Shown: positions 2 to 50,326, counted from the first letter of the stretch. The stretch: DNA of 64,000 bases from a virus (IMGVR_UViG_2799112320_000004:16908-80907), one strand, 5' to 3'. The notes: generated from the letters alone by a model not told the origin. Translations and numbers: made by a program.

Positions 2-1189
2 GCTTCAGGCGGCGGCGGAATCTGGGCGAGCGGCAGCTTCGAATGGGGCGACCTGCTGACGAGCGAGAGCGATCCGAACGTCCCAGCATGGGCGAAGTCG
101 TCAGTCAAGCCGTCCTACTCGTGGAGCGAGATCACCGGCAAGCCGTCCGGCCTCGACAACGCCGTGCCGTCCAGCCGCAAGGTGAACGGCAAGGCGCTAT
201 CGTCCGACATCACGCTTTCCGCGTCGGACGTGGGGGCGCCCTCGACGGGCATGTTCAACGCCTCGTCAAACCTCGCGTCCACGGCGGACAGCAAGGCCAC
301 AATGGCCATCGCATATCTTCAGGGCGACGACGCGAAGGTCGTTGTCACGAACTACGACTCGGCCGTCACGATACCGTCCATGAGCCTACAGCAGCGCATC
401 GCCGACGGCGGATCGAACTACTGGAAAGTCGTCTGGAACGAAATGACGCGGTGGAACAGGTTCACTGGCGACGGCTTCGACTGGGCCGCATGGTGCGGCT
501 TCGGCTGCTTCCGCACGAACGTCCTTGCGCAGCTCGACCAGAAGGCGGACCGCGCCTGGGGCTTCTACGAATCGCACACGGGCAACTACGCTCCGGACGG
601 CTACGCGTGGATCAGCAGCCCGAAGATCGCCATCGCCGCCGGGCTTGCGTACCAGCGGACGATCACGTCGGAGGGGGCCGTGTGGGTGCTGGAGTCTAAC
701 GGGCTTGTCACGGAGACGGGCGGAAACATGACAAACGGATTCTTCCGCATCAGCGACGGAGAAAACAACACGCTCTTCGAGATCGTCAAGGGGAACAAGC
801 GCACCGTCGGCGCGCAGGCCGGAAGCGTGACGACCGAAAGCGTCATGGGCATCTCGCACATGCACATCCTATACGCCGTCACGGGCGGCCATCCGACTAT
901 CAAGGTCTGCACCGACCTCACGACGGCGGACTGGAAGGCCGAGACGTCCGACGAATGCGTGGCGAACGTGAACTGGACTGGAGGGAGCGGGGCTTGGATT
1001 GCAGAGGTCTGGGGCAAGACGGCGCAGCCAAGAATGTTCGTGAACGCGGAGTACGAGGTAGGCGGCGAGACGTACATCAAGAACACGGTTCCGATTTCGG
1101 CCGACGGCGGGATCCTCTGCACCGACGGGATCCACAAGGTGCGGCCGGTCTACAACAACGGCTCGATCACGTGGGAGGTCGTTCAGTGA
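2..1189 (+). CDS. Tail-fibre-like protein, C-terminal part (5' truncated)
   Basis: Frame open from nt 2; motifs ESDPNVPAWAK, KPSYSWSEITGKP and RKVNGKALSSDITLSASDVGA are typical of phage fibres; C-terminus homologous to 45651-48257. Confidence 0.7.
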   Translation, partial: ASGGGGIWASGSFEWGDLLTSESDPNVPAWAKSSVKPSYSWSEITGKPSGLDNAVPSSRKVNGKALSSDITLSASDVGAPSTGMFNASSNLASTADSKATMAIAYLQGDDAKVVVTNYDSAVTIPSMSLQQRIADGGSNYWKVVWNEMTRWNRFTGDGFDWAAWCGFGCFRTNVLAQLDQKADRAWGFYESHTGNYAPDGYAWISSPKIAIAAGLAYQRTITSEGAVWVLESNGLVTETGGNMTNGFFRISDGENNTLFEIVKGNKRTVGAQAGSVTTESVMGISHMHILYAVTGGHPTIKVCTDLTTADWKAETSDECVANVNWTGGSGAWIAEVWGKTAQPRMFVNAEYEVGGETYIKNTVPISADGGILCTDGIHKVRPVYNNGSITWEVVQ

Positions 1190-1833
1190 GGGAGCTGATC
1201 GCAGGATTCCAGGCGTCGCTGATCTGGATTTGCGTCGTCCTGCTGCTGTCGCTCGCGGGAATCGCCGCGTGCCCGATCGTGCGGGACGCGCTTGCGAAGC
1301 TCCGCTCGATGTTCGGCAAGTCGAAGGTTCAGGGCATACTTGTCGCGGCGGCGATCGTCGGCGCGGTCATGTACGGCGGGAGCAAGGGAACCCGCAGCGT
1401 CAGCTTCCCGCGCACGGACATCGAAGTCGCGTACCTGGTGGACGCCGGATCGTATGTCACGAACGACCTGGTGCACGTCGCCTTCGCCTCGTACCTGATC
1501 CCGCAGGACGCGCCCATAATCCTCTCGTACTGGCCCGACGGCTCGACGAACGAGGACGAGATCGTGACGGCCCTGGCGGCGCCGCTCGCCGACTTCCCGA
1601 ACCCGCTTGACTTCGCCTTCGAGAACGCTATCTCGAACAGGTGGTACTGCTACACGACGTGGACGCCTGGCCCGGCCGTACACACGAACGGAGTATGGCA
1701 GACGATTTGGATGATGGACAGGTGCGACAACTTCTACATGATCCCCATCCGGACATGGATCGAAGCGGACGGCGAAGTCATTGCTCCGCCGGTGTTCACC
1801 CTGCCAGAAGAAGGAGAACCAGACGATGAATAA
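1186..1833 (+). CDS. Membrane-anchored protein with two N-terminal hydrophobic segments; paralog of 45100-45654
   Basis: GTG overlaps the upstream TGA; hydrophobic N-terminus; shared AGSY(V/L)TND and P(A/T)VHTNGVWQ motifs. Confidence 0.75.
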   Translation: MRELIAGFQASLIWICVVLLLSLAGIAACPIVRDALAKLRSMFGKSKVQGILVAAAIVGAVMYGGSKGTRSVSFPRTDIEVAYLVDAGSYVTNDLVHVAFASYLIPQDAPIILSYWPDGSTNEDEIVTALAAPLADFPNPLDFAFENAISNRWYCYTTWTPGPAVHTNGVWQTIWMMDRCDNFYMIPIRTWIEADGEVIAPPVFTLPEEGEPDDE

Positions 1834-2317
1834 GACAGCAGCACTCTTCGCGCTCGCCCTGGCGGCGGCGATCGCTCCGCTCGAACTCCGCCCGGACGGC
1901 GACCTCTCGCAGGTCGTCGCCCAGACGCTCTTCTCGGACGGCAGCACGAACACGTGGACGCAAGCCGACCTGATCGCCGCCTTGCAACTTGTGAACCGCA
2001 AGTACCACCGCGACTGCGAGAGGGGGGACGGACGCAGGGCGTGGCACGGGAGGCTGATGCGGCAGACGGTCGTGACGAACGGCACGACGCTCGTCAAGAC
2101 GGAGACGCACGAGGACGGGACCGAGTTCACGTTCGAGGCGCAGTACGTTCCGCCGTCCGTCGCCGTCTCGAACGCGAACGCGCGCCTGAAGACCACGATG
2201 TCGAGGGGCGTGCCGAAGGCGTTGGCCGAGGCGCGGCTCCGGCGAGCGGAGGAAAAGGCAAGCGTGTCGAACGTCACGGTGACGGTCACGGCGGGTGCCG
2301 GAACGGAGGTCAAATGA
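1826..2317 (+). CDS. Secreted protein; paralog of 44582-45103
   Basis: AAGGAG RBS; signal peptide MNKTAALFALALAAA; shared DGSTNTWTQADL.AAL...NR and WHG motifs. Confidence 0.75.
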   Translation: MNKTAALFALALAAAIAPLELRPDGDLSQVVAQTLFSDGSTNTWTQADLIAALQLVNRKYHRDCERGDGRRAWHGRLMRQTVVTNGTTLVKTETHEDGTEFTFEAQYVPPSVAVSNANARLKTTMSRGVPKALAEARLRRAEEKASVSNVTVTVTAGAGTEVK

Positions 2318-2559
2318 CGGATGAAGAAAGACTGAAGGCGCTTGCCGAAGAGGCAAGATACGAGGCGCGTTTGTGCAGAGGTCAGTTTTTCAACTGCTGC
2401 TATCAGAACGACGGCATAAACAAGATGCTGTTGAACCACGCAACGCTTTTCCGCCAACTGGCAAGGGCACTAGTCGGCCCTGACGATGAAGACAAGGCCT
2501 GGGATAACCTTTCGCAAAGAATAGCGGAAAAGTTTGCCGGAGGGGAAAACAATGGATGA
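2314..2559 (+). CDS. Small hypothetical protein (81 aa) of lower GC; no counterpart in prophage B
   Basis: GGAGG RBS, ATGA overlap, AT-richer codons. Confidence 0.6.
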   Translation: MTDEERLKALAEEARYEARLCRGQFFNCCYQNDGINKMLLNHATLFRQLARALVGPDDEDKAWDNLSQRIAEKFAGGENNG

Positions 2560-2800
2560 AGTCACGAGAGACATGGTTAAGGCCCAGCTGAAGTCAGCAA
2601 AGACCAAGGAAGCGTTGAACGACGCCATGGTCAGCGCGATGATCGCCGTCGTGGACTGCCAGTGCAAGACGGGGATGCGAGTCAAGCGCCAGGGGCTCAT
2701 CCTCGCCGGCATCGGCCTGTTACTGCTTCTGACGCTTCTGTGCGGCAACGACAGCGCGCTGAAGTTGCTGTGCTTCTGGAGATCGGGAGGGACGCCGTGA
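2552..2800 (+). CDS. Small membrane protein with one C-terminal TM helix (holin-like position); paralog of 44334-44582
   Basis: MDEVTRDMVKAQLKSAKT...VVDCQCKTGMRVKRQGL then a hydrophobic helix; near-identical to the B copy. Confidence 0.8.
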   Translation: MDEVTRDMVKAQLKSAKTKEALNDAMVSAMIAVVDCQCKTGMRVKRQGLILAGIGLLLLLTLLCGNDSALKLLCFWRSGGTP

Positions 2801-3243
2801 AGACGAAGTGGGCGACATGCGCCGCGCCGATCATCAGGCTTCCCATCAGCACGCTGGGAGAGTCTGAGGCGGTGCTGATGGAAGACTGGAACCTCGACGA
2901 TGTGATCGGATTCTCGTTTTGCGTTCCGGCCGGAACCAGGACGGACGGCGCGAGCATCCCGAGGTTCCTCTGGAGGATTTGCGGCCATCCCCTCATGGCC
3001 CCGCGCGTGTATGCGGCCACACTCCACGACTGGCTGTACGGCGAATTCGACCTGACGGCCGCCGCGCTGCATGAAAGCCGGTACTTCAACACGGCCCTTC
3101 CCACGGACCTTACCCGCAAGGAGGCCGACGAATGCTACCGCGCCCTCCTGCTGCACTTTGGCGTCGCCGCGTGGCGGGCCGACATCGAATACTACGCGCT
3201 CCGGCTGTTCGGATCGCGACACTACAAAGGAAAAAGCAAATGA
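2797..3243 (+). CDS. DUF1353-family protein
   Basis: VPAGTRTDGASIPRFLW, AATLHDWLY and RKEADECY motifs characteristic of DUF1353. Confidence 0.85.
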   Translation: MKTKWATCAAPIIRLPISTLGESEAVLMEDWNLDDVIGFSFCVPAGTRTDGASIPRFLWRICGHPLMAPRVYAATLHDWLYGEFDLTAAALHESRYFNTALPTDLTRKEADECYRALLLHFGVAAWRADIEYYALRLFGSRHYKGKSK

Positions 3244-3890
3244 AGAAGATCATCTGGTTTTGCGCGGCCGCCGCGCTTGCAGCGTCCGCATTGGCCGAAT
3301 ACGATGCCGTCCAGCTGGAAGCCGGCGACAACCTGGTACCGGCACCGTGCTCCGGCGTGATGCTCCATGCCATCAGCACGAACGCGAGCGGCACCGTCGT
3401 CCTGAAGAAGGTGACTGCGCTCTCGATCACGTGGAACGAGACGCGGACGGTGACGAACATCATCTACACGACCGCGTGGAGCAACCTCACGCACACCGTC
3501 ACGAACGACATGGTGAGCGCGTGGCGCACGAACGCCGTCACGGTCGCGGGGACGACGAACACGGTGGTCGAGACCAACTTCCTCGCACGGGCGATGAACG
3601 CCATTCCGTCCGTCTATCCCTGGCCCGACCTGCTGATCACGACGAACAAGCTGACCGGCGTCGAGGTGTACACGAACATCCCGTACAAGGTAGAGTCGTC
3701 GCGTCGCGTGATGCCCTACACGATCCAGCGCCGGGCGTCGAAGTACGTCACGAACGACGTCTGCAACGTGACGCTGGCCAGCGGATTCAAGACGAACGCC
3801 GTCAGCGGCGTGTTCGCGCCCGGCGACTACATCTACGCGAGCGGCACGGCGTTCAACGGCGGACGCGTGCAGCTGATCATAGAGAAGTGA
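3240..3890 (+). CDS. Secreted Thr/Asn-rich protein; paralog of 42511-43296
   Basis: Signal peptide MKKIIWFCAAAALAASALA; shared STNA.GTV and C-terminal PGD....GTAF.GG.VQLI.E motifs. Confidence 0.8.
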   Translation: MKKIIWFCAAAALAASALAEYDAVQLEAGDNLVPAPCSGVMLHAISTNASGTVVLKKVTALSITWNETRTVTNIIYTTAWSNLTHTVTNDMVSAWRTNAVTVAGTTNTVVETNFLARAMNAIPSVYPWPDLLITTNKLTGVEVYTNIPYKVESSRRVMPYTIQRRASKYVTNDVCNVTLASGFKTNAVSGVFAPGDYIYASGTAFNGGRVQLIIEK

Positions 3891-3934
3891 CTTCCGGCAA
3901 TTCCGCCGGGGAAAACAAACAGGAGTAAAAAGCA

Positions 3935-4438
3935 ATGAAGAAACTGATATTGGCGTGTGTCGTTGCCGTGGCCCTCTCGGGGTGCATGTTCATCGTCGCG
4001 GGCTGCCGTACGGTGTGCGTCGAGAACGACAAGGAGAAAGGCTGGTCCGTGACCTGCCGCTCCAACATGATGAAGTCCGAGCTGGACAACATGAAGGCGT
4101 CCATAAATCCCGACGGGACTATCTCGTTCGAGATGGGAGGCCTCGCTTCTAGCCCGTCCGAGGAGTTCGCGAAGAGCCTGATGACGATGACATACATCGC
4201 GCGCCTTGCCGCTGCCATCGCGTCGCCAACTGCGGCCGGCGTCCCGCTCAACGAATCCGCCGCCGACCCACAGGCGATAGCTGCGATCCTTGCCGCCCAG
4301 GCCGCCGCAAAGGAAACGACGGTAAAGGCGAAGAGCGCGGCCGCCGTGAGCAAGATCGAAGCCAAGGCGAAGGCCGCGTGCCCGACCGGCACGTGCTCCG
4401 ACGGAACATGTTCCGACTGCCAGGCGACGGCTAAGTAG
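3935..4438 (+). CDS. Lipoprotein with Cys-rich C-terminus (spanin-like candidate); paralog of 43310-43813
   Basis: AGGAG RBS; lipoboxes LSGC and VAGC; tail CPTGTCSDGTCSDC. Confidence 0.75.
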   Translation: MKKLILACVVAVALSGCMFIVAGCRTVCVENDKEKGWSVTCRSNMMKSELDNMKASINPDGTISFEMGGLASSPSEEFAKSLMTMTYIARLAAAIASPTAAGVPLNESAADPQAIAAILAAQAAAKETTVKAKSAAAVSKIEAKAKAACPTGTCSDGTCSDCQATAK

Positions 4439-5500: not shown

Positions 5501-8500
5501 ATGCCGCTTTGGAAGAACACGCAGCACGCCTTCATCGCCGGGCAGCTCGACACGCATGTCATGGGCCGGCAGGACATGGACAAATATTCCCACGGCGCGA
5601 CGCTCCTGAAGAACTTCCTCGTGAAGCGTCAGGGCTGCATTTCCAAGCGCAGGGGCACCGACCTCACGGCGGACCTCTCCGGACTTCTCGGAACGACCTA
5701 CGACGGCACGCCCATCTCGCCGGACAAGATGCGCCTCGTGCCCGTCACCAACGGCGACGACGGGCGATACGTCATCCTCTCCGGCGGCATCGGATTCGTC
5801 GCAGACCGTAGGGGAGTCATGCTCGACAAGGGTGAATTCGCGCGTTCCATCGGCCCTTACGTGGCCGTCGACGCGGACGGGAAGGCCATCGTCTCCGCGC
5901 GCTCAGACTCGCGTGCGTCGAACGAGACTCCTGTGGACGTGATCCACGCGATCAGCGCGGGCAACTATTCTGTCGCGCGATACGGCAACACATACGATTC
6001 GAACGGCTACATGACGGCCAACGCGCTCCAGAACGCAATCGCCGCCGCGCAGGAGGGAGACACCATCCGCCTGCACGGCGACCTGCTGCTCGAGCAGAAG
6101 CGAACCGGCGAAAACACGCTCGCGCAGAACATCGTCACCGTGGACAAGTCCCTGACGATCGACCTGTACGGTTACAAGGTGACGGTGTACGGACGATACG
6201 CCCACATCGCCGTCACGTCGCCGGACATCGACCTGACGATCACGTCCACTCGGCCCTGCGCCCGTTTCGTCACGCTCTCGGACGCAAACTCGTATTGGCT
6301 GAAGTTCACGCCGTACACGAGCGGTAACACGAAGTCCGGCACCCTGACGCTTGACGGAGACATCTCATGGCAGATGATGGGCGGCGGCTCCAACTTTGGC
6401 GGGATTTACGCGGACCACGCCGCCCACGTGGTCGTGAACTCCGGGAGGTTCGAGTTCGACGACGTAAAGGGAGGATACGTGTTCGCGCTCAAAAACGGCG
6501 GCGACGTGACGATAAACGGCGGTACGTTCAGGATCGGAAACTCCACCGTCACTGAGGACGACACGAAATACATCTTCTGGTGCGCGTCCGCCGGCGCCGT
6601 CACGGTCAACGGCGGGACGTTCGTCAACGAGAACACGAACTCTGGCTCGTCGTCCATCTTCTACGCCGCGACCGTCGCGATCTTCGGCGGAAGGTTCTCC
6701 GCGCAGTCGGCCGCGCAATATTCCAGTTCCGGAACGCTCCGCGTGTTCCGCGGGGAATTCGCGCACAACAACATCAACGGAACCGCCCTGGACGCGACGG
6801 GCTACTATCTCGGCTCGCGCCAGCCCGCGGCCACTACGATCGCTTTCGACGGCACCGACGTCACCGCGACGGCCAGCGCGTGGACCTTGTCTGATTCCGG
6901 GAACCTGACGATCTCGTGGCTCTCCACACAGCATGTGTGGCGCCTGCTCGGCACGATGGCCGGAGGCGGGAACGTGAACGAGACAACGTCCGGCAATCCG
7001 GCCGACACCGAGGTCGTTTTCCCGGAGCACGGCGTGACTGCCACGCGGTCGTGGACGATCTCGGGGGACGGCTCGTGGGCGCTCACGTTCGACATCGCCA
7101 CGACTTACTGGCGGCTCGTCGGAGCTGAGCCGAACGACACGCAGCCGAACGGGGCGGGTTACTACGGCGTCAGGATGATCGGCGAGAACGACTACGCTTA
7201 CGCGCACACGACGGGATCCATCCCGTACCGCATCGCGATCCCGTACGCGGACGCGGACCTGGCCGACCTCTGCATCCGCCAGTCCGGCGACACTCTTTTC
7301 ATCGCGCACCGCGACTACCCTCCTGCCAAAGTGTCGTTCGACGCCGACGGCCGCGCGACTTACGAGGAACTGCGATTCGACAACACTTCACTTCTGCCGC
7401 CGGTCGTCGACTCGGCGGAGATGGCCGGACAGGACCCGGTCGAAACCGAATGGCCGGACGAGTTCCCGCGGCTGAAGGAACAGAGCGACAGCAACGTGGA
7501 CTGCGTGAACGTCGGCTCTGACGGAACCGACGAATACTGGTACACCGCGGGGTGCCCGTCATGGCTCACCGAGAACCAGAAAAAGGAGCTCGTCGCGTTC
7601 AGGAAGGCCTGCGCCGCGCTCGGGACGGTGACGGACGCGGGACACAGCGCCAACGTGGCTGACGGGAACGACGGATCTTGCAGCTACGCCTGCTCGTACA
7701 CATGCACGTCTGTCAGCGTCGACCGTGCGATGGGCGTAAAAACGACAACCGTCTCCGTTAAGTCCTTCACCAAATCCGTGACGAAAGAGGAGACGACGGA
7801 ATTCACGGACGGGCTTGCGACTGGTACGTGCCAGCGGACGATCACCACGGACGGAAGCGCGGAGAACTCCGCGAGCGCGTCGTCCGTCCTCGTGTCTCGC
7901 ACCGTCAGGTACGTCGCGACCTACGTCAAGGACGGCATGGAGTCGCGCCCGTCCGTTCCTGTCGCCGTGGACTACTTCATGCCATGGGCCAACAACGCCG
8001 TCGTGAACATCGTCGTGTCAAAGGGCGACAACGACGACGAGCCTGAATACTACAATGTCTACAAGGACAACGGGAACGGCTACGGACTGATCGGATCCGT
8101 GGGAGTAGAGGCGTCGTCCGGTGCGTTCTCCGCAACGGTTGACGAATATGCGACGAACATTCCGGACAACTCGGCGGACACGCTTTCGGCTCCCTGCCTC
8201 ATGGACTACCTCGACGGCAGGGGCGTCGGACTGGAGACCGTGATGAGGAAGATCTGCTCGGGATCGAACGCGACATTCTCCACCTCGCCGGCCGGTGACG
8301 CCTGCCTCATCTGCCCGCCTTCGCGCCAGTCCGAAGGCATGACCATCAAATTCTCCAAGGGGACGAGGTTCAAGCGGATGCGCGTCTACCTCGACGGGCG
8401 CATCTACGACAAGGTGACAGGCACGGCGTACCTCGTGCCGTCCGCGCCGGAGATCAAGCTTTACGTCACATACCGTAAGGCCGACGGAACGTCCGCGCCC

Positions 8501-25134: not shown

Positions 25135-26242
25135 ACTCCAGTGCCTGACGGATCTCCTCCGTCTTGTCGGCGTGGTCATATCGCTGCACGGTCGCGTCCT
25201 GCGTCCATCCGCCGAGCCGCTTTGCGAGGTCGTTGCTCACGCCGGCCTCGGCCAGGCGTGTCCTGAAGGTATGCCGCCAGCTGTGGAAGGTGATCGTCGG
25301 ATCGTCCACGCCGGCCGCCTTCAGGATCGCGGCGAAGGTACAGTCTTCCGGATCGCCGGGATAGACTTTCGCAAACTCCGGAAGCACATACTTCCGGCCC
25401 TTCACGAACAGACCCTTCAGCGCGTCGCGCAGCACGGCCACCATCGGAACCTCGACCTCGATGTTGTAGCCCTGAGTCTTGATCGGCTTCACGCGGATCA
25501 CGCCCCTCTCGAAGTCTACTTTGCTCCATTCCAGGAACACGACGTCATGCTTCCGGAGCCCGGTCCACCGTGCGACGAGACACGCCTCATACCAATGCGG
25601 CACGGCGCTCGCCTTCGCGGCCGCCAGCACGGCCTTCTCCTGGGCGCGCGTAAACGCGGCGTGACGCTGGCCGTCGCGCACGGTCGGCCGGAGGTCCTTC
25701 CACGGATTGCGGACGCCATACAGGGCCTCGGCGGCCTTCCAGATCGTGGATAGATTCCCGATGTATTCTTTCCGGCTTTTGTCCTTCAGCTTCGCCTTGT
25801 GCTTTTTGTCCTTCGGCGAGCTCTTCTTCTTCAGGTGCTCGGCATACGCCATCGCACACTCGAACGTCACCTCCTCCACGGTCGTGACCGGGAACTCGGT
25901 TTTCGTCCACTCGATGAAATCCTCGAGGTTCTTCTTCCGCTGCTTCACGAGCCGTTCGCCCGGCTTGCGATCGCGCATCGACATGAACCGCTCATACGTC
26001 GCCCACAGCTGAGCGATCGGCAGCCCGGCTCCCTCGCGCTCCCTGGTGAAGACGGCGTCGAGAATGGATTTCAATTTCATCTCGGATATCTTGCCCTTAA
26101 TCGACAGGTGCATGGACTCCTCGATCGACCGCGCATCCTTAATGGAAGTTGTGCCGGTAGACTGGCGGATGAATTTCCCTGGTCTTTTGGGGTCACGGAA
26201 TGAAACCCACCAGTATTTAGAACCGTTATTTTTGTATAGCAT
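25121..26242 (-). CDS. int: Tyrosine recombinase / phage integrase
   Basis: N-terminal arm-binding YWWVSF..R.STGT; catalytic TGLR, FHSWRH, LGGW and terminal Tyr (VQRYDH). Confidence 0.95.
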   Translation of the reverse strand: MLYKNNGSKYWWVSFRDPKRPGKFIRQSTGTTSIKDARSIEESMHLSIKGKISEMKLKSILDAVFTREREGAGLPIAQLWATYERFMSMRDRKPGERLVKQRKKNLEDFIEWTKTEFPVTTVEEVTFECAMAYAEHLKKKSSPKDKKHKAKLKDKSRKEYIGNLSTIWKAAEALYGVRNPWKDLRPTVRDGQRHAAFTRAQEKAVLAAAKASAVPHWYEACLVARWTGLRKHDVVFLEWSKVDFERGVIRVKPIKTQGYNIEVEVPMVAVLRDALKGLFVKGRKYVLPEFAKVYPGDPEDCTFAAILKAAGVDDPTITFHSWRHTFRTRLAEAGVSNDLAKRLGGWTQDATVQRYDHADKTEEIRQALESTSA

Positions 26243-26369: not shown

Positions 26370-26446
26370 TGGTGCGACTGACTGGGATCGAACCAGCAAC
26401 CTTCGGCTTCGGAGGCCAACGCTCTATCCAGTTGAGCTACAGTCGC
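26370..26446 (-). tRNA. trnR: tRNA-Arg(CCG), intact with encoded CCA
   Basis: Reverse complement GCGACTGTAGCTCAACTGGATAGAGCGTTGGCCTCCGAAGCCGAAGGTTGCTGGTTCGATCCCAGTCAGTCGCACCA; anticodon loop CT-CCG-AA; GTTCGA T-loop. Confidence 0.95.
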
Positions 26447-42510: not shown

Positions 42511-43296
42511 CTACCTCTCCAGGATCAGCTGCACCTTGCCGCCGTCGAACGCCGTGCCCTCGCCGATTAGCAAGTCGCCCGGGAATATCGCCGTGTCCAG
42601 CGCGTTCGTCTTGTAGCCGTTTGTGAGCGTCGCGTTCCAGAGCGTGTTCGTGACCGCGAGGCTTGCGACGTGCCGCGTGCGCTCCGTGCGCACTTCCACC
42701 GTGTCCACCACCTGGTACGTCACGTTCGACGAGAGCGCGTGCGTGACCGACTGCGACGTGTAGAGCAGGTCTTTCGTCGGCCATCCCGCCACGAACGGCT
42801 TCGCGCCCCACGCCTGCCCCACCATGTTGCTCACGATCCCCGTCCTGACGAGCGGCACCGCGTTCGTGAGCGCCGTCACGTTCGTGACCGTGTGCGTGAG
42901 GTTCGAGAGGCCCGTCGTGGCGCTCCACACCGTGCCCGTGACGACCGTCGCCACGTTCGTGACATACGTCACGCCCATCACGCTGCCCGTCGCCACGGCG
43001 TAGGCGTTCGTGGTCCATGCCCTCCACAGCGTCTCGGTGGCCGTGTACTGGACGTTGCTCGTCGCCGGCCTGTACGTGTAGTTCGTCACGACCGCCTCCT
43101 CGAACCACTCCACGTCGAGCGGCGTCACGCGCTTCACCGTGACCGTGCCCGTCGCGTTCGTGGAGACCGCCTGCGCGGCGACGGCGCGCGCCGCCTCGAG
43201 CGGCGCCGTCTCGCCCTTCCCCACCTCGACGCCCACGATCGCCGCGTGCGCGGCGCACGCCGCGGCCAGCATTGCCATCGTTGTAAGTTTCTTCAT
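42511..43296 (-). CDS. Secreted Thr/Asn-rich protein; paralog of 3240-3890
   Basis: Signal peptide MKKLTTMAMLAAACAAHA; shared SNLTHTVTN and C-terminal motifs. Confidence 0.8.
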   Translation of the reverse strand: MKKLTTMAMLAAACAAHAAIVGVEVGKGETAPLEAARAVAAQAVSTNATGTVTVKRVTPLDVEWFEEAVVTNYTYRPATSNVQYTATETLWRAWTTNAYAVATGSVMGVTYVTNVATVVTGTVWSATTGLSNLTHTVTNVTALTNAVPLVRTGIVSNMVGQAWGAKPFVAGWPTKDLLYTSQSVTHALSSNVTYQVVDTVEVRTERTRHVASLAVTNTLWNATLTNGYKTNALDTAIFPGDLLIGEGTAFDGGKVQLILER

Positions 43297-43309
43297 TTTG
43301 CCTTCCTCC

Positions 43310-43813
43310 CTACTTCACCGTGCAGTCTTCGCACGTCCCGTCCGTGCATTTTCCCGTCGCGCACTTGGCCGATGCCGCCGTCCCCTTCTCTGCCGCCTTC
43401 GCCGCGATCTTTGCCGTCTCCGCGTTCGACGCCGCGTTCACGAGCGCGGCCGTGTCCGCCGCGTTCGCTGCGCCCTTGTCGAGCGGAACGCTCGCCACGG
43501 CCGGATTGAACACCGTCCCCGCCAGCCTTCCGAGCACCGACACGCCGTACCAGAACTCCGCTGCGTTTTTCGCCAGCTGCTCCGACGTGTCGCTCTTGTA
43601 GCCGTTGAACTCGACCTCCACGCCTTCTGCCGACTTCTTCGCGCGGAACGAATCCACGTCACGCTTCAGCCAGTGCGACGTAGACGTGACCGACCATCCT
43701 CCGTCGGCATTCACCTCGACCTTCGTCGAACTGCATCCCGCGCACATGAACACGCACCCTCCCAGGCTCGCCAACATGCCGCCCAATGCAGCAATCTTGA
43801 TCATCTTCTTCAT
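43310..43813 (-). CDS. Lipoprotein with Cys-rich tail; paralog of 3935-4438
   Basis: AGGAG RBS; LGGC and CAGC lipoboxes; CATGKCTDGTCEDC. Confidence 0.75.
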   Translation of the reverse strand: MKKMIKIAALGGMLASLGGCVFMCAGCSSTKVEVNADGGWSVTSTSHWLKRDVDSFRAKKSAEGVEVEFNGYKSDTSEQLAKNAAEFWYGVSVLGRLAGTVFNPAVASVPLDKGAANAADTAALVNAASNAETAKIAAKAAEKGTAASAKCATGKCTDGTCEDCTVK

Positions 43814-43887
43814 TTCTTCTTCTCCTTGTTTCCTTTTTTCGATAATAACCACGCGGGCGGCTTCCACCAAATTCACAACATGGCCTT

Positions 43888-44337
43888 TCAAAGACTCCGC
43901 CCGCTTTCCGGGCACCCGCCCGAAATCTCCTTTCCCTCCGGCGCCTTGTCGACGAAGTGCCGGCCGCCGAACGCGCGCAGCGCGTAGTACTCCACTCCCG
44001 CCGCGAACGCCCCTATGCCGAAATGGCGCAGCAGCGCGCGGTAGATCCTGTCCGCCTCCTTGCGCGTGATCCCCAGGCGCCAGGCGTTGCGGTAGAGCCA
44101 GTCGTGCGCGAGCGCAGCGTAGACTCGCGGTGCCTGCAATGGATGCCCGCAGACACGCCACAGCACTCTGGGGATGGAGGCACCGTCCGTGGTCGTGCCT
44201 GCGGGTATCACGATGTCGAAGAATTCCTCCACGCGGTAGAGCGACCACGGCTCCATGAGAACCGCTTCCTTCTCTCCGAGCGTGCTTATCGGCAGCCGGA
44301 TGATCGGCGCCGCGCAGTCTGCCCATTCCGTCCTCAC
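43888..44337 (-). CDS. DUF1353-family protein; paralog of 2797-3243
   Basis: IPAGTTTDGASIPRVLW, AALAHDWLY, RKEADRIY. Confidence 0.85.
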   Translation of the reverse strand: MRTEWADCAAPIIRLPISTLGEKEAVLMEPWSLYRVEEFFDIVIPAGTTTDGASIPRVLWRVCGHPLQAPRVYAALAHDWLYRNAWRLGITRKEADRIYRALLRHFGIGAFAAGVEYYALRAFGGRHFVDKAPEGKEISGGCPESGRSL

Positions 44338-44582
44338 GACGCGCCTCCCGAATGCCAGAAGCTGAGCAGCTTCATCGCCGTATCGTTCCCGAAGAGCAGA
44401 GCCACCAGCAGCAGAAGGCCGATCCCCGCGACGATGAGCCCCTGCCGTTTTACGCGCATGCCTGTTTTACACTGACAGTCAACGACAGCGATCATCGCGC
44501 TCACCATCGCGTCATTCAGGGCCTCCGTGGTCTTTGCCGACTTGAGCTGCGCCTTGACCATATCACGCGTTACTTCGTCCAT
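44334..44582 (-). CDS. Small membrane protein (holin-like position); paralog of 2552-2800
   Basis: Near-identical protein sequence; TGATG overlap. Confidence 0.8.
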   Translation of the reverse strand: MDEVTRDMVKAQLKSAKTTEALNDAMVSAMIAVVDCQCKTGMRVKRQGLIVAGIGLLLLVALLFGNDTAMKLLSFWHSGGAS

Positions 44583-45103
44583 CACTGACCTCCCGGCCCG
44601 ACGATGACCGTCACCTCGTTCGTCTCGCCCGCGATTCTCTGCGCCGCGCGAAGAGCGGCGAGATCTGGCGGAAGATTCGCACTCTCCCACGCCGCGCGCG
44701 CCTCGTCGGCCCTGCGTTTCGCCTCGGCCGCGGCCTTCGCTGCCGCCTCCGGATCCTGCCTGATCCGCTTGCGGTAGCGCACCATGCGATTCGTCGCCAC
44801 GAATCCGTCCTGGTAGAGCTGCACGACGATCATCTGAGCCGCGCCGTTCGCGTTCGTGACGCCGGTCGGCAACAGGTACTCGCCGATCCGCTCGCCGTGC
44901 CACTTCTGGCGGCCGGCGTCCGTTCCCTGGTCGCGCCAGTACATGCGGTTCATCAGGCCGAGCGCGGCCTGTAAATCCGCCTGCGTCCACGTGTTCGTCG
45001 ACCCATCGGCGCGGATGGTCGCGGCGACGATCGGCTCGTCTGCCTGCGTGACGGCGCAAATTGCGGCGACTGCGGCGACGGTGAGGAACAGTATCTTTTT
45101 CAT
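44582..45103 (-). CDS. Secreted protein; paralog of 1826-2317
   Basis: Signal peptide MKKILFLTVAAVAAICAVTQA; DGSTNTWTQADL. Confidence 0.75.
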   Translation of the reverse strand: MKKILFLTVAAVAAICAVTQADEPIVAATIRADGSTNTWTQADLQAALGLMNRMYWRDQGTDAGRQKWHGERIGEYLLPTGVTNANGAAQMIVVQLYQDGFVATNRMVRYRKRIRQDPEAAAKAAAEAKRRADEARAAWESANLPPDLAALRAAQRIAGETNEVTVIVGPGGQ

Positions 45104-45654
45104 TGCGTCTCCTTCTTGATGACCTTGGTGTTCGGGAACGCGCTCTTGCCCGTGCCCGGTATCGTAAAGCCTTTCATTTGCCAAACGCCGTTTGTGTGGA
45201 CGGTCGGCGCGGGCGTGAAGTTCGCAGCGACCATCACGTCGTAGTTCGTGGCGTTGACGAGCGCGTAGTCGTATGGATGATCCGCGAAAGTGAGATGTGG
45301 CGTGAGGCGCACCCAGTCGGTCGCGTTCGTCAAATCGACCTGCCGCGCGTAGACGAGGATCTCCGTGTCGTCCGGAAGAAGCTGCGTCCGCTTGGCAAGC
45401 GCGACATGCGCCACGTCGTTCGTGAGGTATGAGCCGGCGTTCATGATATACGGGTCGGACACCGTCACCGTCCCCTTTCGGCCGAACATGGTACAGGCAA
45501 CAGCAAGCGCGAGCATGGCGAGGGTCGCACGGCGCATGCGACGCTTCGCGCGCATGGCGGCCTTGCCCATGTTCGCGGCCGTCACGATCAACGCGATCAC
45601 CATGAGCACGGCGACGCCGGCATACATCACGGCGTTCTGGATTGCCTGCATCAT
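45100..45654 (-). CDS. Membrane-anchored protein; paralog of 1186-1833
   Basis: Two hydrophobic segments; AGSYLTND; PTVHTNGVWQ. Confidence 0.75.
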   Translation of the reverse strand: MMQAIQNAVMYAGVAVLMVIALIVTAANMGKAAMRAKRRMRRATLAMLALAVACTMFGRKGTVTVSDPYIMNAGSYLTNDVAHVALAKRTQLLPDDTEILVYARQVDLTNATDWVRLTPHLTFADHPYDYALVNATNYDVMVAANFTPAPTVHTNGVWQMKGFTIPGTGKSAFPNTKVIKKETQ

Positions 45655-48257
45655 TGCTTTGTCCAAATCAGGTTGTTGCCGGAGACGGTCGGCACGAACT
45701 TCACGCCGTTCACCCAGATGCCGGCCGAGATGTCTGTGGTGGCGCTGTTGCGGATCACGACGCCGCCTTCCTGAAGGAACGAAAAGCGCAGGAACAGCGA
45801 CGGCGGGCGCGTGCCGTTGAAGTCGAGCGTCAGCACCCAGGCGCCCGTGCCGCCCGTCCAGTTGAAGTCCCATGTCTGCGGTGCGCTGGTCTCATCGCCC
45901 CAGCCTACATCGTCAAGCGCATAACGCCAGAAGCACGATGGATGGTCCTGGGACACGACCGGCACGGGAACCGTGACTGATGTCTCGCCCACGGTGATGC
46001 CCGCGGCGTTCGCGCCGACGACCTGGGCGTCGGTTTTCTCGATCGAAAAGACCGGCGTTCCGTCATCGGCCGAAATCCGAAAATATGCGTTTGTGTCAGG
46101 GTTGAAGTCGGCGGCCATGCCGTTCGAGGATAGCACCCACACCTCGCCGTAGGTGTCCACCACCTTGGCGTACTCAAGCCCGCCGGCGATGACGGTCGTG
46201 GGCGTGGAGATCCACGTGGTGTTAGACGGCGCATCTGCGCCGAGGCCGGAGGTGGTTCTGGACCAGGCGCGCGGTGCGGCGTTCGTGAGCGCGGCGTCCG
46301 TGTACTCGTTCGCCCGTGCCAGCGTCCGCGTCAGTCCGTTCATCTCCGACCACACCGTGACGTACTCATTCGACTCGTTGAGCTGCATGAGCCGGAGCTC
46401 CGGCGCGTGGACCTGCGAGTTATAGTTCGTCACTTCCGCCACGACGTTCGATCCGGAATAAAGCCGATAGACGAGCGTCGATTCGGTTCTGAGGTCCGCT
46501 ATGTCGCTTTGGATTGATGCCGTGTCTGGGAGGTCATTCGTCAAGGCGACGCGGCCGATAAGATTCGTCACAAGAATGTCGTACCGTGTCCAGTTTGCAA
46601 CAAGCTCATCCCCCATTGAAAAGTGAAGTGTTGTCGCGTTCGGTTCGCCGCCAAGATCCGTAGGCGTTCCACCAGGCTCCAGAAACCATCCGTCCGTGGG
46701 GTACATTTCTCCGTCTGCCCCATGCCAATAAGGGCCGACCCAAGAGCTGATATTTTCTGGTGTGAATCCTGTGTAGCTTGACAAACTCCATCCGGCGTTA
46801 CGCGCAACTTCCCACACGCACCCCGTCGCGTCCGTGAAGCGAGACGGCGTGCCGTACACGGTCGCACGCGCAACCGCCCCCGTTGATGCGAACGCGCCGA
46901 GCGCGCGGTCGGTGTAGTTGGTTGCCGATCGTGCGATCTGCCACACATCCGAGGCCGTCACATCGCCATGTCCGCCGCCTGTCTGGTCCACGAGCCGCGT
47001 GGCTGCGAACACCGTGCCCATCTCACCCCACTGGTTGAAACGCTCGTCCACCTCGCCCATCACGACATTCTTCGCCGTCGCCATGTCGTTCGTGTAGGCT
47101 ACCCGGTTCACGGCGTTGGTGAACCACTGCACCGTGCGCGAGCAGGTCGTCGTGATCGAATGCTCTTGCTCTTCCTGCTCCTCCCAATAGCTCCATTCCA
47201 CTACTATCTCGCTTTCATACCGATCCTCACTCATCCGCATCGGCGTCAGCGTGCTGCTGCTGATGTACCATCCCGGTCCCTCGTAGTAGTCTTCGCCTTC
47301 GCCCTCCGCACCCCACCACCACGGGCCGTACCAGTTCAGGCCGGTCGTTGTCCAGCTGTGCACCACCGTCCACTGGCCTGTCACTACCTGCACCTGCCAC
47401 ACCACACCCGTCGCGTCCTGGTAAGTCGTTGCGTCGCTCGACCAGAGGCGCGTCATGCCGCCTGTGAGCTCCAGCGCGTCGATCTTCGCTTCCAGCCGCG
47501 CGTCCGCGCGTGCCAGCTCGTTGCTCGCGGCCCGCACGCCCTGCCACACCCTGTTCGTTGCCGTGTCCAGCCTGTTGCTGAGCTCCGCATCCACTGTGTC
47601 AACGCGCTGCGATGTGGCATTGATCGCCAGGTCCTGCGCGTCGATGCGCGCTCCAACGCCCGCTTCGGTCGCGTAGCCCTGCGCGCTGATCCACGCCCGC
47701 GTCGCGAAATTCGTGATGTCGCCTTCCGTGAGGTAGTCCGTCGGCAACTCGCTCTTGAGCGCGTAGGGCGCGAGGTCCGGAGCGGCCGGGATCTCGCTGC
47801 GCTTGGCGAAGGTCGCGTCCACGCGGTTGGATTCGGCCTCGGCGGCGCGGAGCGCCGCCTGCACGACCGCGTTCGTGGCACCGGTGATCTCGGCCTGCAG
47901 CGAGCCCTCTGCCGCTTCCACCCTGTTGCTCACCGCCGCGCCCAGCGCGCCCACCGCCGCTATGGCCACCGCATCCTCCTCGTTCGTCACCACGGGCGCA
48001 GTGTTGGGGATGTCCTCGAGCGGCGCGGTGGCGGCGTATGACTGCATGCGTACGACAGCAAGCGCAAGGCACACCGCCGCCGTCGCGATCACGCGCACGA
48101 TCTGGTCCACTTTTTGCTTCACGGTCTTGAGCGTGTAGTCATCGCCAATCTCGCCCAGGTTCACGCGATCTACCTTGTCGGTGGACGTGCCCGAAGGCAC
48201 GCCACCCCGACCGTTTCCGCCCGGGTAGAATTCTCCTCTGTCGCTGCGCTCGTCCAT
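45651..48257 (-). CDS. Fibre-like protein with an N-proximal hydrophobic segment, coiled coil, internal duplication and a C-terminal domain shared with prophage A
   Basis: APDLAPYALKSELPTDYLT fibre-type motif; C-terminal WIS.P...IA.GL.Y......G.VWVL.SNG and NWTGG.GAW shared with 2-1189. Confidence 0.65.
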   Translation of the reverse strand: MDERSDRGEFYPGGNGRGGVPSGTSTDKVDRVNLGEIGDDYTLKTVKQKVDQIVRVIATAAVCLALAVVRMQSYAATAPLEDIPNTAPVVTNEEDAVAIAAVGALGAAVSNRVEAAEGSLQAEITGATNAVVQAALRAAEAESNRVDATFAKRSEIPAAPDLAPYALKSELPTDYLTEGDITNFATRAWISAQGYATEAGVGARIDAQDLAINATSQRVDTVDAELSNRLDTATNRVWQGVRAASNELARADARLEAKIDALELTGGMTRLWSSDATTYQDATGVVWQVQVVTGQWTVVHSWTTTGLNWYGPWWWGAEGEGEDYYEGPGWYISSSTLTPMRMSEDRYESEIVVEWSYWEEQEEQEHSITTTCSRTVQWFTNAVNRVAYTNDMATAKNVVMGEVDERFNQWGEMGTVFAATRLVDQTGGGHGDVTASDVWQIARSATNYTDRALGAFASTGAVARATVYGTPSRFTDATGCVWEVARNAGWSLSSYTGFTPENISSWVGPYWHGADGEMYPTDGWFLEPGGTPTDLGGEPNATTLHFSMGDELVANWTRYDILVTNLIGRVALTNDLPDTASIQSDIADLRTESTLVYRLYSGSNVVAEVTNYNSQVHAPELRLMQLNESNEYVTVWSEMNGLTRTLARANEYTDAALTNAAPRAWSRTTSGLGADAPSNTTWISTPTTVIAGGLEYAKVVDTYGEVWVLSSNGMAADFNPDTNAYFRISADDGTPVFSIEKTDAQVVGANAAGITVGETSVTVPVPVVSQDHPSCFWRYALDDVGWGDETSAPQTWDFNWTGGTGAWVLTLDFNGTRPPSLFLRFSFLQEGGVVIRNSATTDISAGIWVNGVKFVPTVSGNNLIWTKQ

Positions 48258-50326
48258 CACCCTTCCACTCCTTCCACGCCTGTGCGGCCGATCTCGGCGT
48301 TCTCGCCGAACTGGGTGTTCTGCTGCTCGAGCGCCTCCATCCAGCGCTGCAGGTTCTCCTGCGCGACGGGCGACATCTCCGCGATCGCGTCCGGGTTCTC
48401 CTCCTGGAGCTGCTGGTAGAACTGGAGCCGCGCGCCGTAGTTCCACCTGCCCTGCGTGTCCATGCGCGGCATCACGCCCGCCTTGATGAGCGCGAAGTTC
48501 TGCTTCTCCTCCTCGAGGTCGTTCGCGGTCAGCTGCTCAGGCGAGCGCATCGCCTCCCCGCTCACCTCCGGCCAGAGCTGCCGCATCACGTGGCGTAGCA
48601 CCGGCAGCGTGTCCACGGCGCGCTCGCGGTCGATCGACTGCAGCACGCCCGCAAACGCCTGCACCTTGTCGAGCAGCGCCTTGTTGTCCAGGTTGCGCGG
48701 GTCCAGCCTGAGCGTGATGCCGAAGCTGCCCGTGATGTCCTCGCGGCGCAGGCCCTGCACGTCGCCCTCGCCCGTCACGCCCGCAAGCGCCTCGTCGCTC
48801 GCGTGGTCCTGCGCGGCCTCCACCATGAGCACGAACAGGTCCTGGAACTGGCGCAGGAACCAGTTGACCTCCTCCTGGCGCCTCTCCGTCACGTCCGTCT
48901 GGCCGTCGCTCACGCCCACGTAGGCGAGCAGCTCGGCCTTCAGGCGCTCCTCCGTCTCCTTCGCTGCGGCCGGGTACGCCGGCGGCTGCATCCAGAGCAA
49001 ATCGTCGTTGATCCCCATGTTGATCACGGAGAACGGCTCGATCACGGCGTTGCGCGTGCGCGTGCCCTTCGCCTTGATCGGAGGCAGGCTGCCGACGATG
49101 GCGTTGTTGGCCGCCATGTCGCGCACCTCCTTGGCCACGCCCTGGTCCGGCGCGCACAGCGCCGCGAGCCCGCGCGCGGCGAGCAGGTTCCGCCCCGTCA
49201 CCTCGCGGCGAAAGAACGCGACGCCCCACGTCCCGCGCCGGCTGCGTATCGCGCGCTGGCCGAACGCGCTGCCGTCGGCGTGCCCGAGCACCGTCACCCA
49301 GCGCACGGTCTCGCCCGCGTCCGTCGTCACGGCCTCGTAGCACCACACGATGTTGCACAGGTCCTTCACGTCGTCGTTCGGACGCGTCGCCTCGTCGTAG
49401 AAGCTCGCGCCCTTGTAACGCAGCTCCTCCTCCACCCATTCGGGATCCCAGCCGTCGCTCTCAATCCGCTCGCGCAGCTGCTCCTCCGTCACCCACTCGC
49501 CCCGGAACCACGGGCTCGCGTAGTCGAAGTCGCTCGCCTCCCGCGGAATGCAGAAGTCGTCGCCGTACCTGAGCGCCTTCAGCTCCACGCCCTCGTCCGC
49601 CGGTCCCCGGCAGAGGCATTCGCACTCGCCCTCCTCGGCGAGCGCGCGCCGCACGGCCTCTGCGTCCTCCTGTCGGACGCCCTGCGCGACGAGGAACGCA
49701 TCCAGCTGCTCCGTGGCAGCCTCGTCCTCGCCGCGCAGGCCCATCCAGTATTTTCCCTCGAGCGTAGCCGGATCGGTCTCTTCGCTCCCGTTCGCGGCTA
49801 CATATTGCGCGGCAAGCTCTTCCGCGTTGAGCTCGCGGACGGCCAGCGAGGCGCGACGGCGCCAGGAAACGTCCATCGCCGCCACCGCCGGGCTGTCCAC
49901 GAGCATGTACCTGAGCAGGGCCAGGAACTCGGCGTAGCCTTTCGCCCCCAGCCTTCCCATCTCCCATCCGAGAAGCCTCTTGAGCGCATTGGCGCGCCGC
50001 TCGGCGTCCGGGCCCGCCCCGCAGGCGAACTCCACCTCGCAGCTCGACAGCGCGATCATGACGAGGGCGATCTTGTCAAGGACCACCTTCTCGCCCCAGC
50101 GCACGCGCTGGTCGCTCGCGCCGTCGAAAGGCCAGGCGCATTCGGTCTTGGTGTCGTGCACCGTGCCGTCCGCGTTCTGGCCGTCCCACACGCAGTAGAA
50201 CGCCTCCTCGGCGGCCGAGCGGCTGCCGTAGAACTGGCGCGAGCGTTCGCGCCACCAACCGAGCGCTAGAAGCAGGTCGTTCCGCTTCTCGTCGCCCAGC
50301 GCCCTCTGCGTGCCGATGCGCCTCAT
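48257..50326 (-). CDS. Portal (head-tail connector) protein
   Basis: 689 aa adjacent to the capsid gene; WPFDGASD motif; GLAALCAPDQGVAKEVRDMAANNAIVGSLPP stem region; podoviral portal size. Confidence 0.75.
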   Translation of the reverse strand: MRRIGTQRALGDEKRNDLLLALGWWRERSRQFYGSRSAAEEAFYCVWDGQNADGTVHDTKTECAWPFDGASDQRVRWGEKVVLDKIALVMIALSSCEVEFACGAGPDAERRANALKRLLGWEMGRLGAKGYAEFLALLRYMLVDSPAVAAMDVSWRRRASLAVRELNAEELAAQYVAANGSEETDPATLEGKYWMGLRGEDEAATEQLDAFLVAQGVRQEDAEAVRRALAEEGECECLCRGPADEGVELKALRYGDDFCIPREASDFDYASPWFRGEWVTEEQLRERIESDGWDPEWVEEELRYKGASFYDEATRPNDDVKDLCNIVWCYEAVTTDAGETVRWVTVLGHADGSAFGQRAIRSRRGTWGVAFFRREVTGRNLLAARGLAALCAPDQGVAKEVRDMAANNAIVGSLPPIKAKGTRTRNAVIEPFSVINMGINDDLLWMQPPAYPAAAKETEERLKAELLAYVGVSDGQTDVTERRQEEVNWFLRQFQDLFVLMVEAAQDHASDEALAGVTGEGDVQGLRREDITGSFGITLRLDPRNLDNKALLDKVQAFAGVLQSIDRERAVDTLPVLRHVMRQLWPEVSGEAMRSPEQLTANDLEEEKQNFALIKAGVMPRMDTQGRWNYGARLQFYQQLQEENPDAIAEMSPVAQENLQRWMEALEQQNTQFGENAEIGRTGVEGVEG

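Follow-up and report, generated by a model that had tools for sequence, protein, structure and literature searches.

A 64,000-nucleotide stretch of viral DNA (IMGVR_UViG_2799112320_000004:16908-80907), called the window here at its whole length, corresponds to bases 32900–96899 of a 109-kb contig in a draft genome of 5.2 Mb with 64% GC. The host is a gut Lentisphaerae bacterium carrying two unrelated prophages, A and B. Phage A, with a T7-type portal and a GP7 capsid, begins about 18 kb before the window and extends on the + strand to its integrase gene (25121–26113), and phage B, with an SU10-type capsid, occupies the − strand between 26585 and about 63900. When the proteins of the two phages were compared by BLASTP, all against all, eight common pairs were found, and six of these are the genes of a block that follows the tail-fibre gene in both phages (A 1186–4438, +; B 42511–45654, −), as the original prediction, made from the sequence alone, had reported. 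The identities are 40% over 110 amino acids (aa) for A1/B1, 43% over 76 aa for A2/B2, 85–87% for A3/B3, 60–67% for A4/B4, 35% for A5/B5 and 38% for A6/B6. The two pairs outside the block are the fibre C-terminus (31% over 294 aa) and an early HD-phosphohydrolase-like gene (41%). No match between the phages was obtained for the genes of adaptor, nozzle and ejection proteins, in agreement with the statement that their other tail genes are dissimilar. By tblastn the block occurs only at these two places in the genome. With moderate confidence, the block is read here as two late-expressed, envelope-directed modules, one consisting of the fibre tip, A1 and A2 and the other being a lysis-type cassette of A3, A4 and A6 with A5 as an optional member; it probably attacks host membranes at release.

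The proteins of the block are exported or membrane-bound, as predicted: A1/B1 and A3/B3 have transmembrane (TM) segments, A2 and A5 have signal peptides, and A6 and B6 have lipoboxes (sequence and hydropathy scan). The composition of the cassette was described correctly as to these features and needs correction in its layout. The last two genes stand in reverse order in B (lipoprotein, then Thr/Asn-rich protein), A carries an extra gene, A2b, and the fibre tip belongs to the block. A2b has no counterpart in B, and tblastn did not find it in the related loci retrieved, among them L004, which is closely related to phage A; it is best regarded as an insertion outside the conserved set. At five of the seven junctions from the fibre gene through A5 the stop and start codons overlap, no promoter or terminator signal above chance was found on the coding strand of the block, and the GC content at third codon positions (GC3) is like that of the flanking late genes; from this, the block seems to share the transcript of the late operon. 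Related loci were drawn from IMG/VR, GTDB genomes and metagenome contigs, and the cassette has its relatives in metagenome-assembled genomes (MAGs) of Lentisphaerae and Kiritimatiellae from gut or rumen samples. Structures were predicted for A1 and A5 with AlphaFold2 (AF2). NCBIfam gave no match for ten cassette proteins.

Table 1. Fibre genes and genes of the shared block in prophages A and B (positions counted from the first base of the window).
Feature	Position	Strand	Basis or remark
Phage A tail fibre, C-terminal 395 aa	2..1189	+	gene start 280 bases before the window; PHROG tail-fibre matches; last ~300 aa are the tip domain common with B
A1, predicted two-TM anchor with periplasmic FN3/Ig-like beta-sandwich	1186..1833	+	hydropathy, AF2 model
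A2, Sec-exported periplasmic protein	1826..2317	+	signal peptide in sequence
A2b, 81-aa cytoplasmic open reading frame (ORF), three Cys	2314..2559	+	high GC3 frame
A3, 82-aa tail-anchored membrane protein	2552..2800	+	alignment, hydropathy
A4, DUF1353 (TtaP-class phospholipase A2, predicted), no signal peptide	2797..3243	+	Pfam
A5, Sec-exported Thr/Asn/Val-rich protein, optional member	3240..3890	+	signal peptide, AF2 model
A6, outer-membrane-type lipoprotein	3935..4438	+	lipobox in sequence
Phage B tail fibre, C-terminal ~290 aa homologous to A tip	45651..48260	−	BLASTP
B1, A1 homologue	45100..45654	−	BLASTP; two TM segments, +7 loop
B2, A2 homologue	44582..45103	−	BLASTP; signal peptide
B3, A3 homologue, 82 aa	44334..44582	−	87% identity in alignment
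B4, DUF1353/phospholipase A2 (predicted), A4 homologue	43888..44337	−	HD...D residues kept
B6, A6 homologue, placed before B5	43310..43813	−	lipobox LGGC, C-terminal Cys cluster
B5, A5 homologue	42511..43296	−	~45-aa insertion at predicted stalk tip

The enzyme of the block is A4, which matches DUF1353 (PF07087) in Pfam with 66.2 bits against a gathering cut-off of 22.5 (E 2e-18). In the typhoid-toxin islet of Salmonella Typhi, the protein TtaP, which consists of nearly nothing else than one DUF1353 domain, has been described as a distant relative of the group XIV secreted phospholipases A2 (PLA2), and its PLA2 activity has been demonstrated and is abolished by D85A (Gartly et al. 2024, PMC11525133). 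DUF1353, which the original prediction lists by this name only, can no longer be counted as uncharacterised in view of the demonstrated activity of the class. Residues H77, D78 and D111 (A4 numbering), equated by motif with TtaP H70, D71 and D85, are invariant in an alignment of 14 phage DUF1353 sequences. A search of PDB sequences with the DUF1353 profile gave PLA2 8k1w as the best match (E 0.24) and 4AUP as the sixth (E 4.4), both below significance, and at these sub-significant scores the HD, D and 'AVR-FG' motifs align between the profile and the sequences of the PLA2 structures. SvPLA2 (1LWB) and TbSP1 (4AUP) are the structures that represent group XIV. By family match and conserved motifs, A4 and B4 are members of the DUF1353/TtaP class of PLA2 with intact catalytic residues, and they are predicted to hydrolyse phospholipids at sn-2. 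Neither has a signal peptide. Synonymous divergence (dS) between A4 and B4 is 1.84 and non-synonymous divergence (dN) 0.32, and the values for A3 and B3 are 1.74 and 0.08; at saturated dS, these values show strong purifying selection on both A3 and A4.

A second family occupies the DUF1353 position in the loci L007 (10393–10788) and L022 (11415–11834). Its members have ~130–150 aa, form 406 clusters at 50% identity and share conserved YNGxGP, HD, AN and FGW motifs. The family has no match in Pfam or NCBIfam, and aligned with DUF1353 by hhalign at 94.8% probability (E 5e-8) with identical motif order and a nearly invariant Asn at the position of the second catalytic Asp. TbSP1 PLA2 (4AUP) was its second-best PDB match, at E 1 and thus below significance, and the PDB sequence search with the L007 enzyme otherwise gave noise. 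Among 50,697 phage records the enzyme had no tblastn match. Two further contexts were found for the family, a 1.3-kb fragment and a locus with the order 'fibre-like protein, enzyme, portal', and neither was informative. The profile alignment points to a remote sister of DUF1353 within the PLA2 superfamily.

In the core, unrelated sequences replace one another at each of three positions. In all of ten loci the gene 5' of the enzyme encodes a small protein that has a helix in the cytoplasm and, at its C-terminal end, a TM segment; it belongs to one of three unrelated sequence types, with unrelated small tail-anchored proteins at the A3 position in L018, L020 and L022. The enzyme position is held by three PLA2-superfamily types (two DUF1353 subtypes and the unnamed sister family), and 3' of it follows a lipoprotein, again of three unrelated types. 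Nine of the ten lipoproteins end in a cluster of 2–4 Cys, and in none is the lipid-modified Cys followed by Asp. The types at the three core positions occur in every combination among related loci. Holins, endolysins and spanins reassort freely in lysis cassettes, and the free reassortment of the core suggests that its parts act independently on a common target and not as a tight complex. The core also occurs with other fibre types, in L018 and in G001/L005, G001 being a relative of phage A from IMG/VR. A complex of A3 and A4 was considered and set aside, since proteins of the A3 type occur with each of the three kinds of enzyme, and this speaks against a specific interface. In L005 (the same in G001) a sigma-70-like gene (6485–7504; Sigma70_r2, E 1e-5) separates the fibre genes from the cassette.

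A3 has a cytoplasmic N-domain of 47 aa, one TM segment and about 18 aa outside, stands in a holin-like position and is coupled to A4 through a GTGA overlap. Pfam, PHROGs and NCBIfam gave neither a holin nor any other family match for A3. The small proteins of L018 and L022 gave weak matches to XhlA (PF10779), of 13.8–14.9 bits against a cut-off of 34.7 (E 0.03–0.07), and A3 gave no XhlA match. A6 has the lipobox LSGC, no Asp at position +2, an Ala-rich helix and a C-terminal C-x4-C-x5-C-x2-C. No family match for A6 was found in Pfam, PHROGs or NCBIfam, and the PDB sequence search gave only noise; residues 1–22, which form the signal peptide, match PHROG 1119 (Cor) at E 0.05.

DUF1353 is the only cassette gene with cultured relatives, and tblastn found it in 56 phage records. 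The contexts examined (n=14) comprised 12 annotated records and two published gene tables. In nine of them an annotated endolysin, lysozyme, amidase or M15 peptidase lies at most three genes from DUF1353, namely in Salmonella phage Segz_1, Escherichia coli phage Bas80, Pseudomonas phages Cygsa01 and phiPMW, Caulobacter phage DMCA, Fusobacterium phages phiRTG5 and FNU1, Cobetia phage Carin1 and Nitratiruptor phage NrS-3. In Funu2 a 'peptidase' gene stands immediately 5' of DUF1353, and the contexts in PaBG and Bakedbeans were uninformative. In the T1-like phages Segz_1 and Bas80, DUF1353 stands at the end of an operon whose other genes are annotated endolysin, endolysin, holin and Rz-like spanin, and the fibre genes are far away. 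The original prediction proposed to test whether the cassette and endolysins exclude each other and named routine co-occurrence with canonical endolysins as a refutation; for DUF1353, the nine contexts show co-occurrence and not exclusion. The usual position beside endolysins suggests that in those phages DUF1353 acts alongside a wall enzyme and not as its replacement. DUF1353 is a lysis-associated family that normally accompanies a wall hydrolase.

Such a hydrolase was not recognised in either prophage. Pfam and PHROG scans of every called protein of prophages A and B, including the 18 kb of phage A outside the window and both giant proteins, gave no peptidoglycan hydrolase, with the phage A PHROG result covering the best 25 of 39 families. 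The Pfam and PHROG families present were those of portal, capsid, terminase, replication, methylase, integrase and polyvalent-protein domains. The phage A relative G001 (46,646 bp, direct terminal repeats, rated 100% complete) has the core cassette and lacks A1 and A2; 36 of its 37 proteins gave 18 Pfam families, none a wall hydrolase, and no hydrolase was found in it by Pfam or PHROGs. The claim that no endolysin is recognisable is therefore confirmed for both whole prophages and for a complete relative. In the related prophage types L024 and L025, of which both stretches are partial, no precomputed Pfam hydrolase was present upstream. A six-frame search of the whole host genome gave no GH24, SLT, GH108 or GH25; the GH108 search was also empty in all control genomes, and that negative is weak evidence. 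A single Amidase_2 was found, on another contig (C253). Spanin features were likewise missing, in that A6 has no C-terminal TM segment, the periplasmic part of A3 is about 18 residues long and no type-II coiled-coil membrane protein is present. No Pfam scan of the window or prophage proteins matched patatin. The host makes peptidoglycan, with five transpeptidase matches of the penicillin-binding protein (PBP) type and six Mur-ligase matches in its genome. The absence of an endolysin holds at the sensitivity of profile hidden Markov models, at which a novel or very remote hydrolase fold could escape detection, and the wall cutter could be an unrecognised phage enzyme or host autolysins. As an observation on the host itself, the SLT (PF01464) lytic transglycosylase was not found in six frames of this 95%-complete diderm genome (G000), and the same search was positive in eight of 14 control genomes.

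The other module joins A1 and A2 to a single fibre-tip type. In eight of eight loci A1 and A2 were found together with the tip domain, which is present in every locus with A1/A2, and A2 homologues lie directly 3' of the A1 position in L004, L007, L020, L021, L022, L023 and phage B. Identities to phage A for fibre tip, A1 and A2 are 90, 96 and 92% in L004; 68, 63 and 70% in L007; 57, 51 and 60% in L021; 49, 57 and 54% in L022; 54, 43 and 35% in L023; and 31, 40 and 43% in phage B. They drop broadly in parallel across the loci. In L020 the tip is 33% and A2 55% identical, A1 has no match at E 1e-4, and the A1 position is held by a protein with a similar N-terminal membrane segment. A1 and A2 are absent where the fibre is of another type (G001/L005, L018). 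Four head types occur among the loci with this module (T7-like portal, SU10 capsid, lambda-type portal and Mu-like), and the Mu-like L023 has only fibre, A1 and A2, with the prophage end directly after them.

By hydropathy, A1 and B1 have two TM helices flanking a strongly basic loop, which implies a C-terminal domain outside the cytoplasm. The AF2 model of A1 (mean predicted local distance difference test, pLDDT, 73) is a helical hairpin with an FN3/Ig-like sandwich, for which Foldseek gave FN3 matches with probabilities up to 1.00 (E 5e-3) and VIA gave Z 5–5.6 to many FN3 domains. As modelled, the fold is of a binding type and not that of a hydrolase. A1 has 199 homologues, no Pfam family and no tblastn match among the 50,697 phage records. 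A2 consists of a conserved domain of ~70 aa and a charged helical tail, and had no match in Pfam, PHROGs, NCBIfam or PDB sequences (PDB gave only noise). Atlas look-ups with A1 and A2 gave no usable match. A1 would be an inner-membrane-anchored, FN3-like binder and A2 a periplasmic protein, inherited with one type of receptor-binding tip. Because the A1 domain and A2 are expected in the periplasm and fibres are assembled in the cytoplasm, their link with the tip probably runs through the receptor, by masking or exclusion. They may act on the structure recognised by the tip and might, for instance, cover it so that superinfection or the loss of progeny on cell debris is prevented.

A5, which accompanies the core in the podoviruses and is missing from four loci (L006, L007, L021 and L022), appears to be an optional member. 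Its AF2 model (pLDDT 83.8; predicted template modelling score, pTM, 0.46) shows a jelly-roll head, to which the N- and C-terminal segments contribute, and a two-stranded beta stalk with ~48 residues per strand, at the tip of which B5 has a 45-residue insertion. The best structural matches were pentameric nucleoplasmin cores (VIA Z 9.3); the head matched XepA/YomS (6i56, 6i5o) at VIA Z 7.1, within the background range stated for the tool, and Foldseek gave no match at E<=1e-3. An isolated two-stranded ribbon of about 150 Å, as estimated from the strand length, is unlikely to stand alone, and on the model A5 is therefore likely to be an oligomer. The ESM Atlas shape search returned only unnamed viral proteins. 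About 100 homologue clusters exist, all unnamed except one hypothetical protein of a Kiritimatiellae MAG, and tblastn gave no match for A5 among the 50,697 phage records. An aerolysin-type pore former was considered for A5 and rejected, the matches being weak (probability 0.1–0.2, TM-score ~0.1) and the stalk strands having no amphipathic membrane-insertion pattern.

These results are consistent with the following course of events. Late in infection, the A3-type small membrane protein would breach or depolarise the inner membrane, and the PLA2 would then reach periplasmic and outer-membrane phospholipids and produce lysolipids and fatty acids, with the lipoprotein A6 and A5 acting from the outer-membrane side. 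We infer the order of these events, a holin role for A3 and the roles given to A6, A5 and A1/A2. The Sec signals and lipoboxes should rule out packaging in virions assembled in the cytoplasm, so that the proteins would act in the envelope of the producing cell. The lysis-type reading of the core is supported by its mosaic shuffling and by the position of DUF1353 beside lysis genes in cultured phages. The original prediction of an unconventional envelope-disruption system thus stands as to the exported proteins, the late operon, the missing hydrolase and the lysis association of DUF1353, and not as to one machine of six parts. A stronger form of this reading, in which the tail-anchored membrane protein, the PLA2-superfamily enzyme and the Cys-cluster lipoprotein make up the complete phage-encoded lysis system of Lentisphaerae/Kiritimatiellae phages in a diderm with peptidoglycan, with no phage wall hydrolase and with the wall breached by host autolysins unleashed through membrane damage or failing mechanically after degradation of both membranes, is rather unlikely.

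Several points weigh against a lysis role of the core. In phages A and B the cassette lies inside the structural operon, between the fibre and adaptor genes, and DUF1353 is near fibre genes also in ZY21, phiPMW, NrS-3 and Francisella KIRK; a lysis role and a fibre-linked one cannot be told apart by position alone. No holin family matches A3, which at 87% is conserved in a way not typical of holins. A4 has no export signal, and a PLA2 in the cytoplasm would need some restraint. With the peptidoglycan genes of the host, membrane attack alone is not expected to free virions. No experiment ties any DUF1353 protein to phage lysis and, the hypothesis on phage WO described below aside, no paper was found that ties DUF1353 or any phage phospholipase to lysis. 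Deletion of ttaP in Salmonella Typhi is reported to have given no envelope phenotype (PMC11525133).

The fibre-linked side of the evidence would be accounted for if the whole block were an envelope-remodelling or superinfection-exclusion set tied to host range, changing or masking receptors in the infected or lysogenic cell without any role in lysis. The block always adjoins the fibre gene, and A1 and A2 co-vary with the tip. Exported proteins and lipoproteins encoded beside receptor-binding genes are known exclusion factors (T5 Llp, Cor), a precedent to which the weak Cor match of A6, confined to the signal peptide, may be added. However, the core is independent of fibre type in G001 and L018, the T1-like phages have DUF1353 in a lysis operon far from their fibre genes, and the block has no promoter or terminator of its own and resembles the late genes in composition, unlike typical lysogenic-conversion morons. 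This explanation is decidedly unlikely for the block as a whole. DUF1353 might instead be a tail-fibre assembly or tail-associated protein, as it is labelled in databases (RefSeq; PHROG 1158, 'tail assembly chaperone'), or it might be a virion-borne entry lipase with accessory fibre neighbours. The gene does lie directly 3' of fibre genes in ZY21, phiPMW and Francisella KIRK, but no experimental basis was found for the label, TtaP is an enzyme whose catalytic residues are invariant in the phage copies, and Segz_1, Bas80, DMCA and Cygsa01 carry the gene in the lysis cluster and not in the tail cluster. The Sec and lipoprotein signals would moreover bar the neighbouring proteins from virion assembly in the cytoplasm, and a tail function is very improbable.

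In the form nearest to the original prediction, the six proteins together would be a single machine for lysis or egress across the envelope, in place of holin, endolysin and spanin, and one of them would be a new wall-degrading enzyme. In favour of this, the cassette genes are the only envelope-directed proteins common to two phages of one host, Pfam and PHROGs gave no peptidoglycan hydrolase in A, B or G001, and the host makes peptidoglycan. The six genes are not passed on as one unit, however, since G001 has the core without A1 and A2, L023 has only A1 and A2, and A5 is lacking in L006, L007, L021 and L022. The variants at each position recombine freely, which is against tight complexes, and DUF1353 co-occurs with canonical endolysins elsewhere. 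The fold checks by Foldseek and structure comparison gave an FN3-like fold for A1 and a jelly-roll with stalk for A5, and neither is a hydrolase. A single machine of this kind is quite improbable, and the division into two modules is preferred here.

Textbook lysis of Gram-negative hosts by tailed phages uses a holin, a wall hydrolase and a spanin or disruptin, and lipid hydrolysis is not part of the scheme. Among spanins (Rz/Rz1; the u-spanin gp11 of T1), Rz1 is an outer-membrane lipoprotein with functionally important Cys residues. A6 resembles Rz1 as an outer-membrane-type lipoprotein with Cys, but it has no inner-membrane partner with a periplasmic coiled coil and no C-terminal TM segment. 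A lipolytic enzyme directed against the outer layer is known in LysB of mycobacteriophages, which carries out a third lysis step as a serine esterase on mycolyl-arabinogalactan; A4 would likewise be lipolytic, as a PLA2. The cassettes of the nine cultured phages with DUF1353 are alike in that the gene has small membrane-protein genes as neighbours and lies where the late region ends, often directly behind the fibre genes. Unlike these, which carry an annotated endolysin and in some cases a spanin, the Lentisphaerae phages have neither detected, and have instead the Cys-cluster lipoprotein and in some cases the exported beta-stalk protein.

TtaP and A4 belong to the same Pfam family and are both small proteins that lack a signal peptide and have the catalytic His-Asp and a downstream Asp. 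The phage A copy differs by a 16-residue insertion between HD and the second Asp, and the A4 and B4 genes belong to phage late operons, where they are coupled to those of a small membrane protein and a lipoprotein; their activity is a prediction. TtaP is encoded near the phage-type muramidase TtsA, as are many phage DUF1353 copies near such enzymes, whereas A4/B4 have no muramidase neighbour (PMC11525133). For the Wolbachia phage WO, Bordenstein and Bordenstein (2022; PMC9203015) have proposed a putative lytic cassette of a patatin-type PLA2 and a small holin-like protein, with no canonical endolysin. Both cases are proposals that place a PLA2 beside a small holin-like protein. Patatin is, however, an unrelated enzyme family, phage WO has an ankyrin protein instead of the lipoprotein, and Wolbachia has no detectable peptidoglycan, whereas the host here has PBP and Mur-ligase genes. 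In the PBSX and SPbeta elements of Bacillus subtilis, an exported beta-sandwich protein (XepA/YomS) and a tail-anchored coiled-coil protein (XhlA) are encoded in a late lysis cluster (PMC6834076). The A5 head (Z 7.1 to XepA/YomS) and the small proteins of L018 and L022 recall these, all below significance; PBSX differs in its holin and amidase and its Gram-positive host, and A3 itself does not match XhlA.

A PLA2-centred lysis-type cassette together with a fibre-linked envelope pair would leave one gap, the wall hydrolase not found despite the peptidoglycan of the host. In phages of the PVC (Planctomycetes, Verrucomicrobia and Chlamydiae) bacteria, a mosaic lysis-type cassette has no recognisable enzyme other than DUF1353 or its sister family (~400 clusters), and a class of demonstrated PLA2 that databases label 'tail assembly chaperone' recurs in the lysis regions of unrelated phages. 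If the enzyme helps to dismantle membranes, it would represent a fourth kind of lysis function that is testable in E. coli and Salmonella phages, and the annotation could be corrected. The apparent lack of an endolysin in a host that makes peptidoglycan would point to an unknown family of wall hydrolases or to recruitment of host autolysins. The linkage of tip, A1 and A2 marks a candidate receptor-masking pair in an uncultured host group.

Some further features were observed in the window and its relatives. A tRNA-Arg(CCG) gene at 26370–26446 is the point at which prophages A and B converge; the phage A integrase abuts its 3' side, and the giant gene of phage B ends ~140 bases from its 5' end. 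For phage B no integrase was found. Giant polyvalent proteins terminate both prophages (13591–25134, +, 3830 aa; 26585–36196, −, 3193 aa). One contains ddrB-ParB, two LPD23, LPD3 and SprT-like domains and the other MuF_C and ADP-ribosyltransferase domains, and more than half of each has no assigned domain. A nozzle-type tail protein of 1550 aa (5501–10153, +) matches PHROG 376 over residues 1101–1408 (E 5e-90) and has ~1100 extra N-terminal residues. Just past the early end of phage B lies an island of low GC content (64071–65900; 41–48% against 64% overall) with membrane-protein ORFs, which looks like foreign DNA of other origin. L007 and its companion L008 (CAMKJU010000001.1, 29507–49752 and 80440–100685) are separated by 50.9 kb on one 124-kb contig of a Lentisphaerae MAG and did not differ in their tables of tblastn hits, which suggests that a circular phage genome was assembled in the manner of a concatemer or that the prophage is present in tandem copies.

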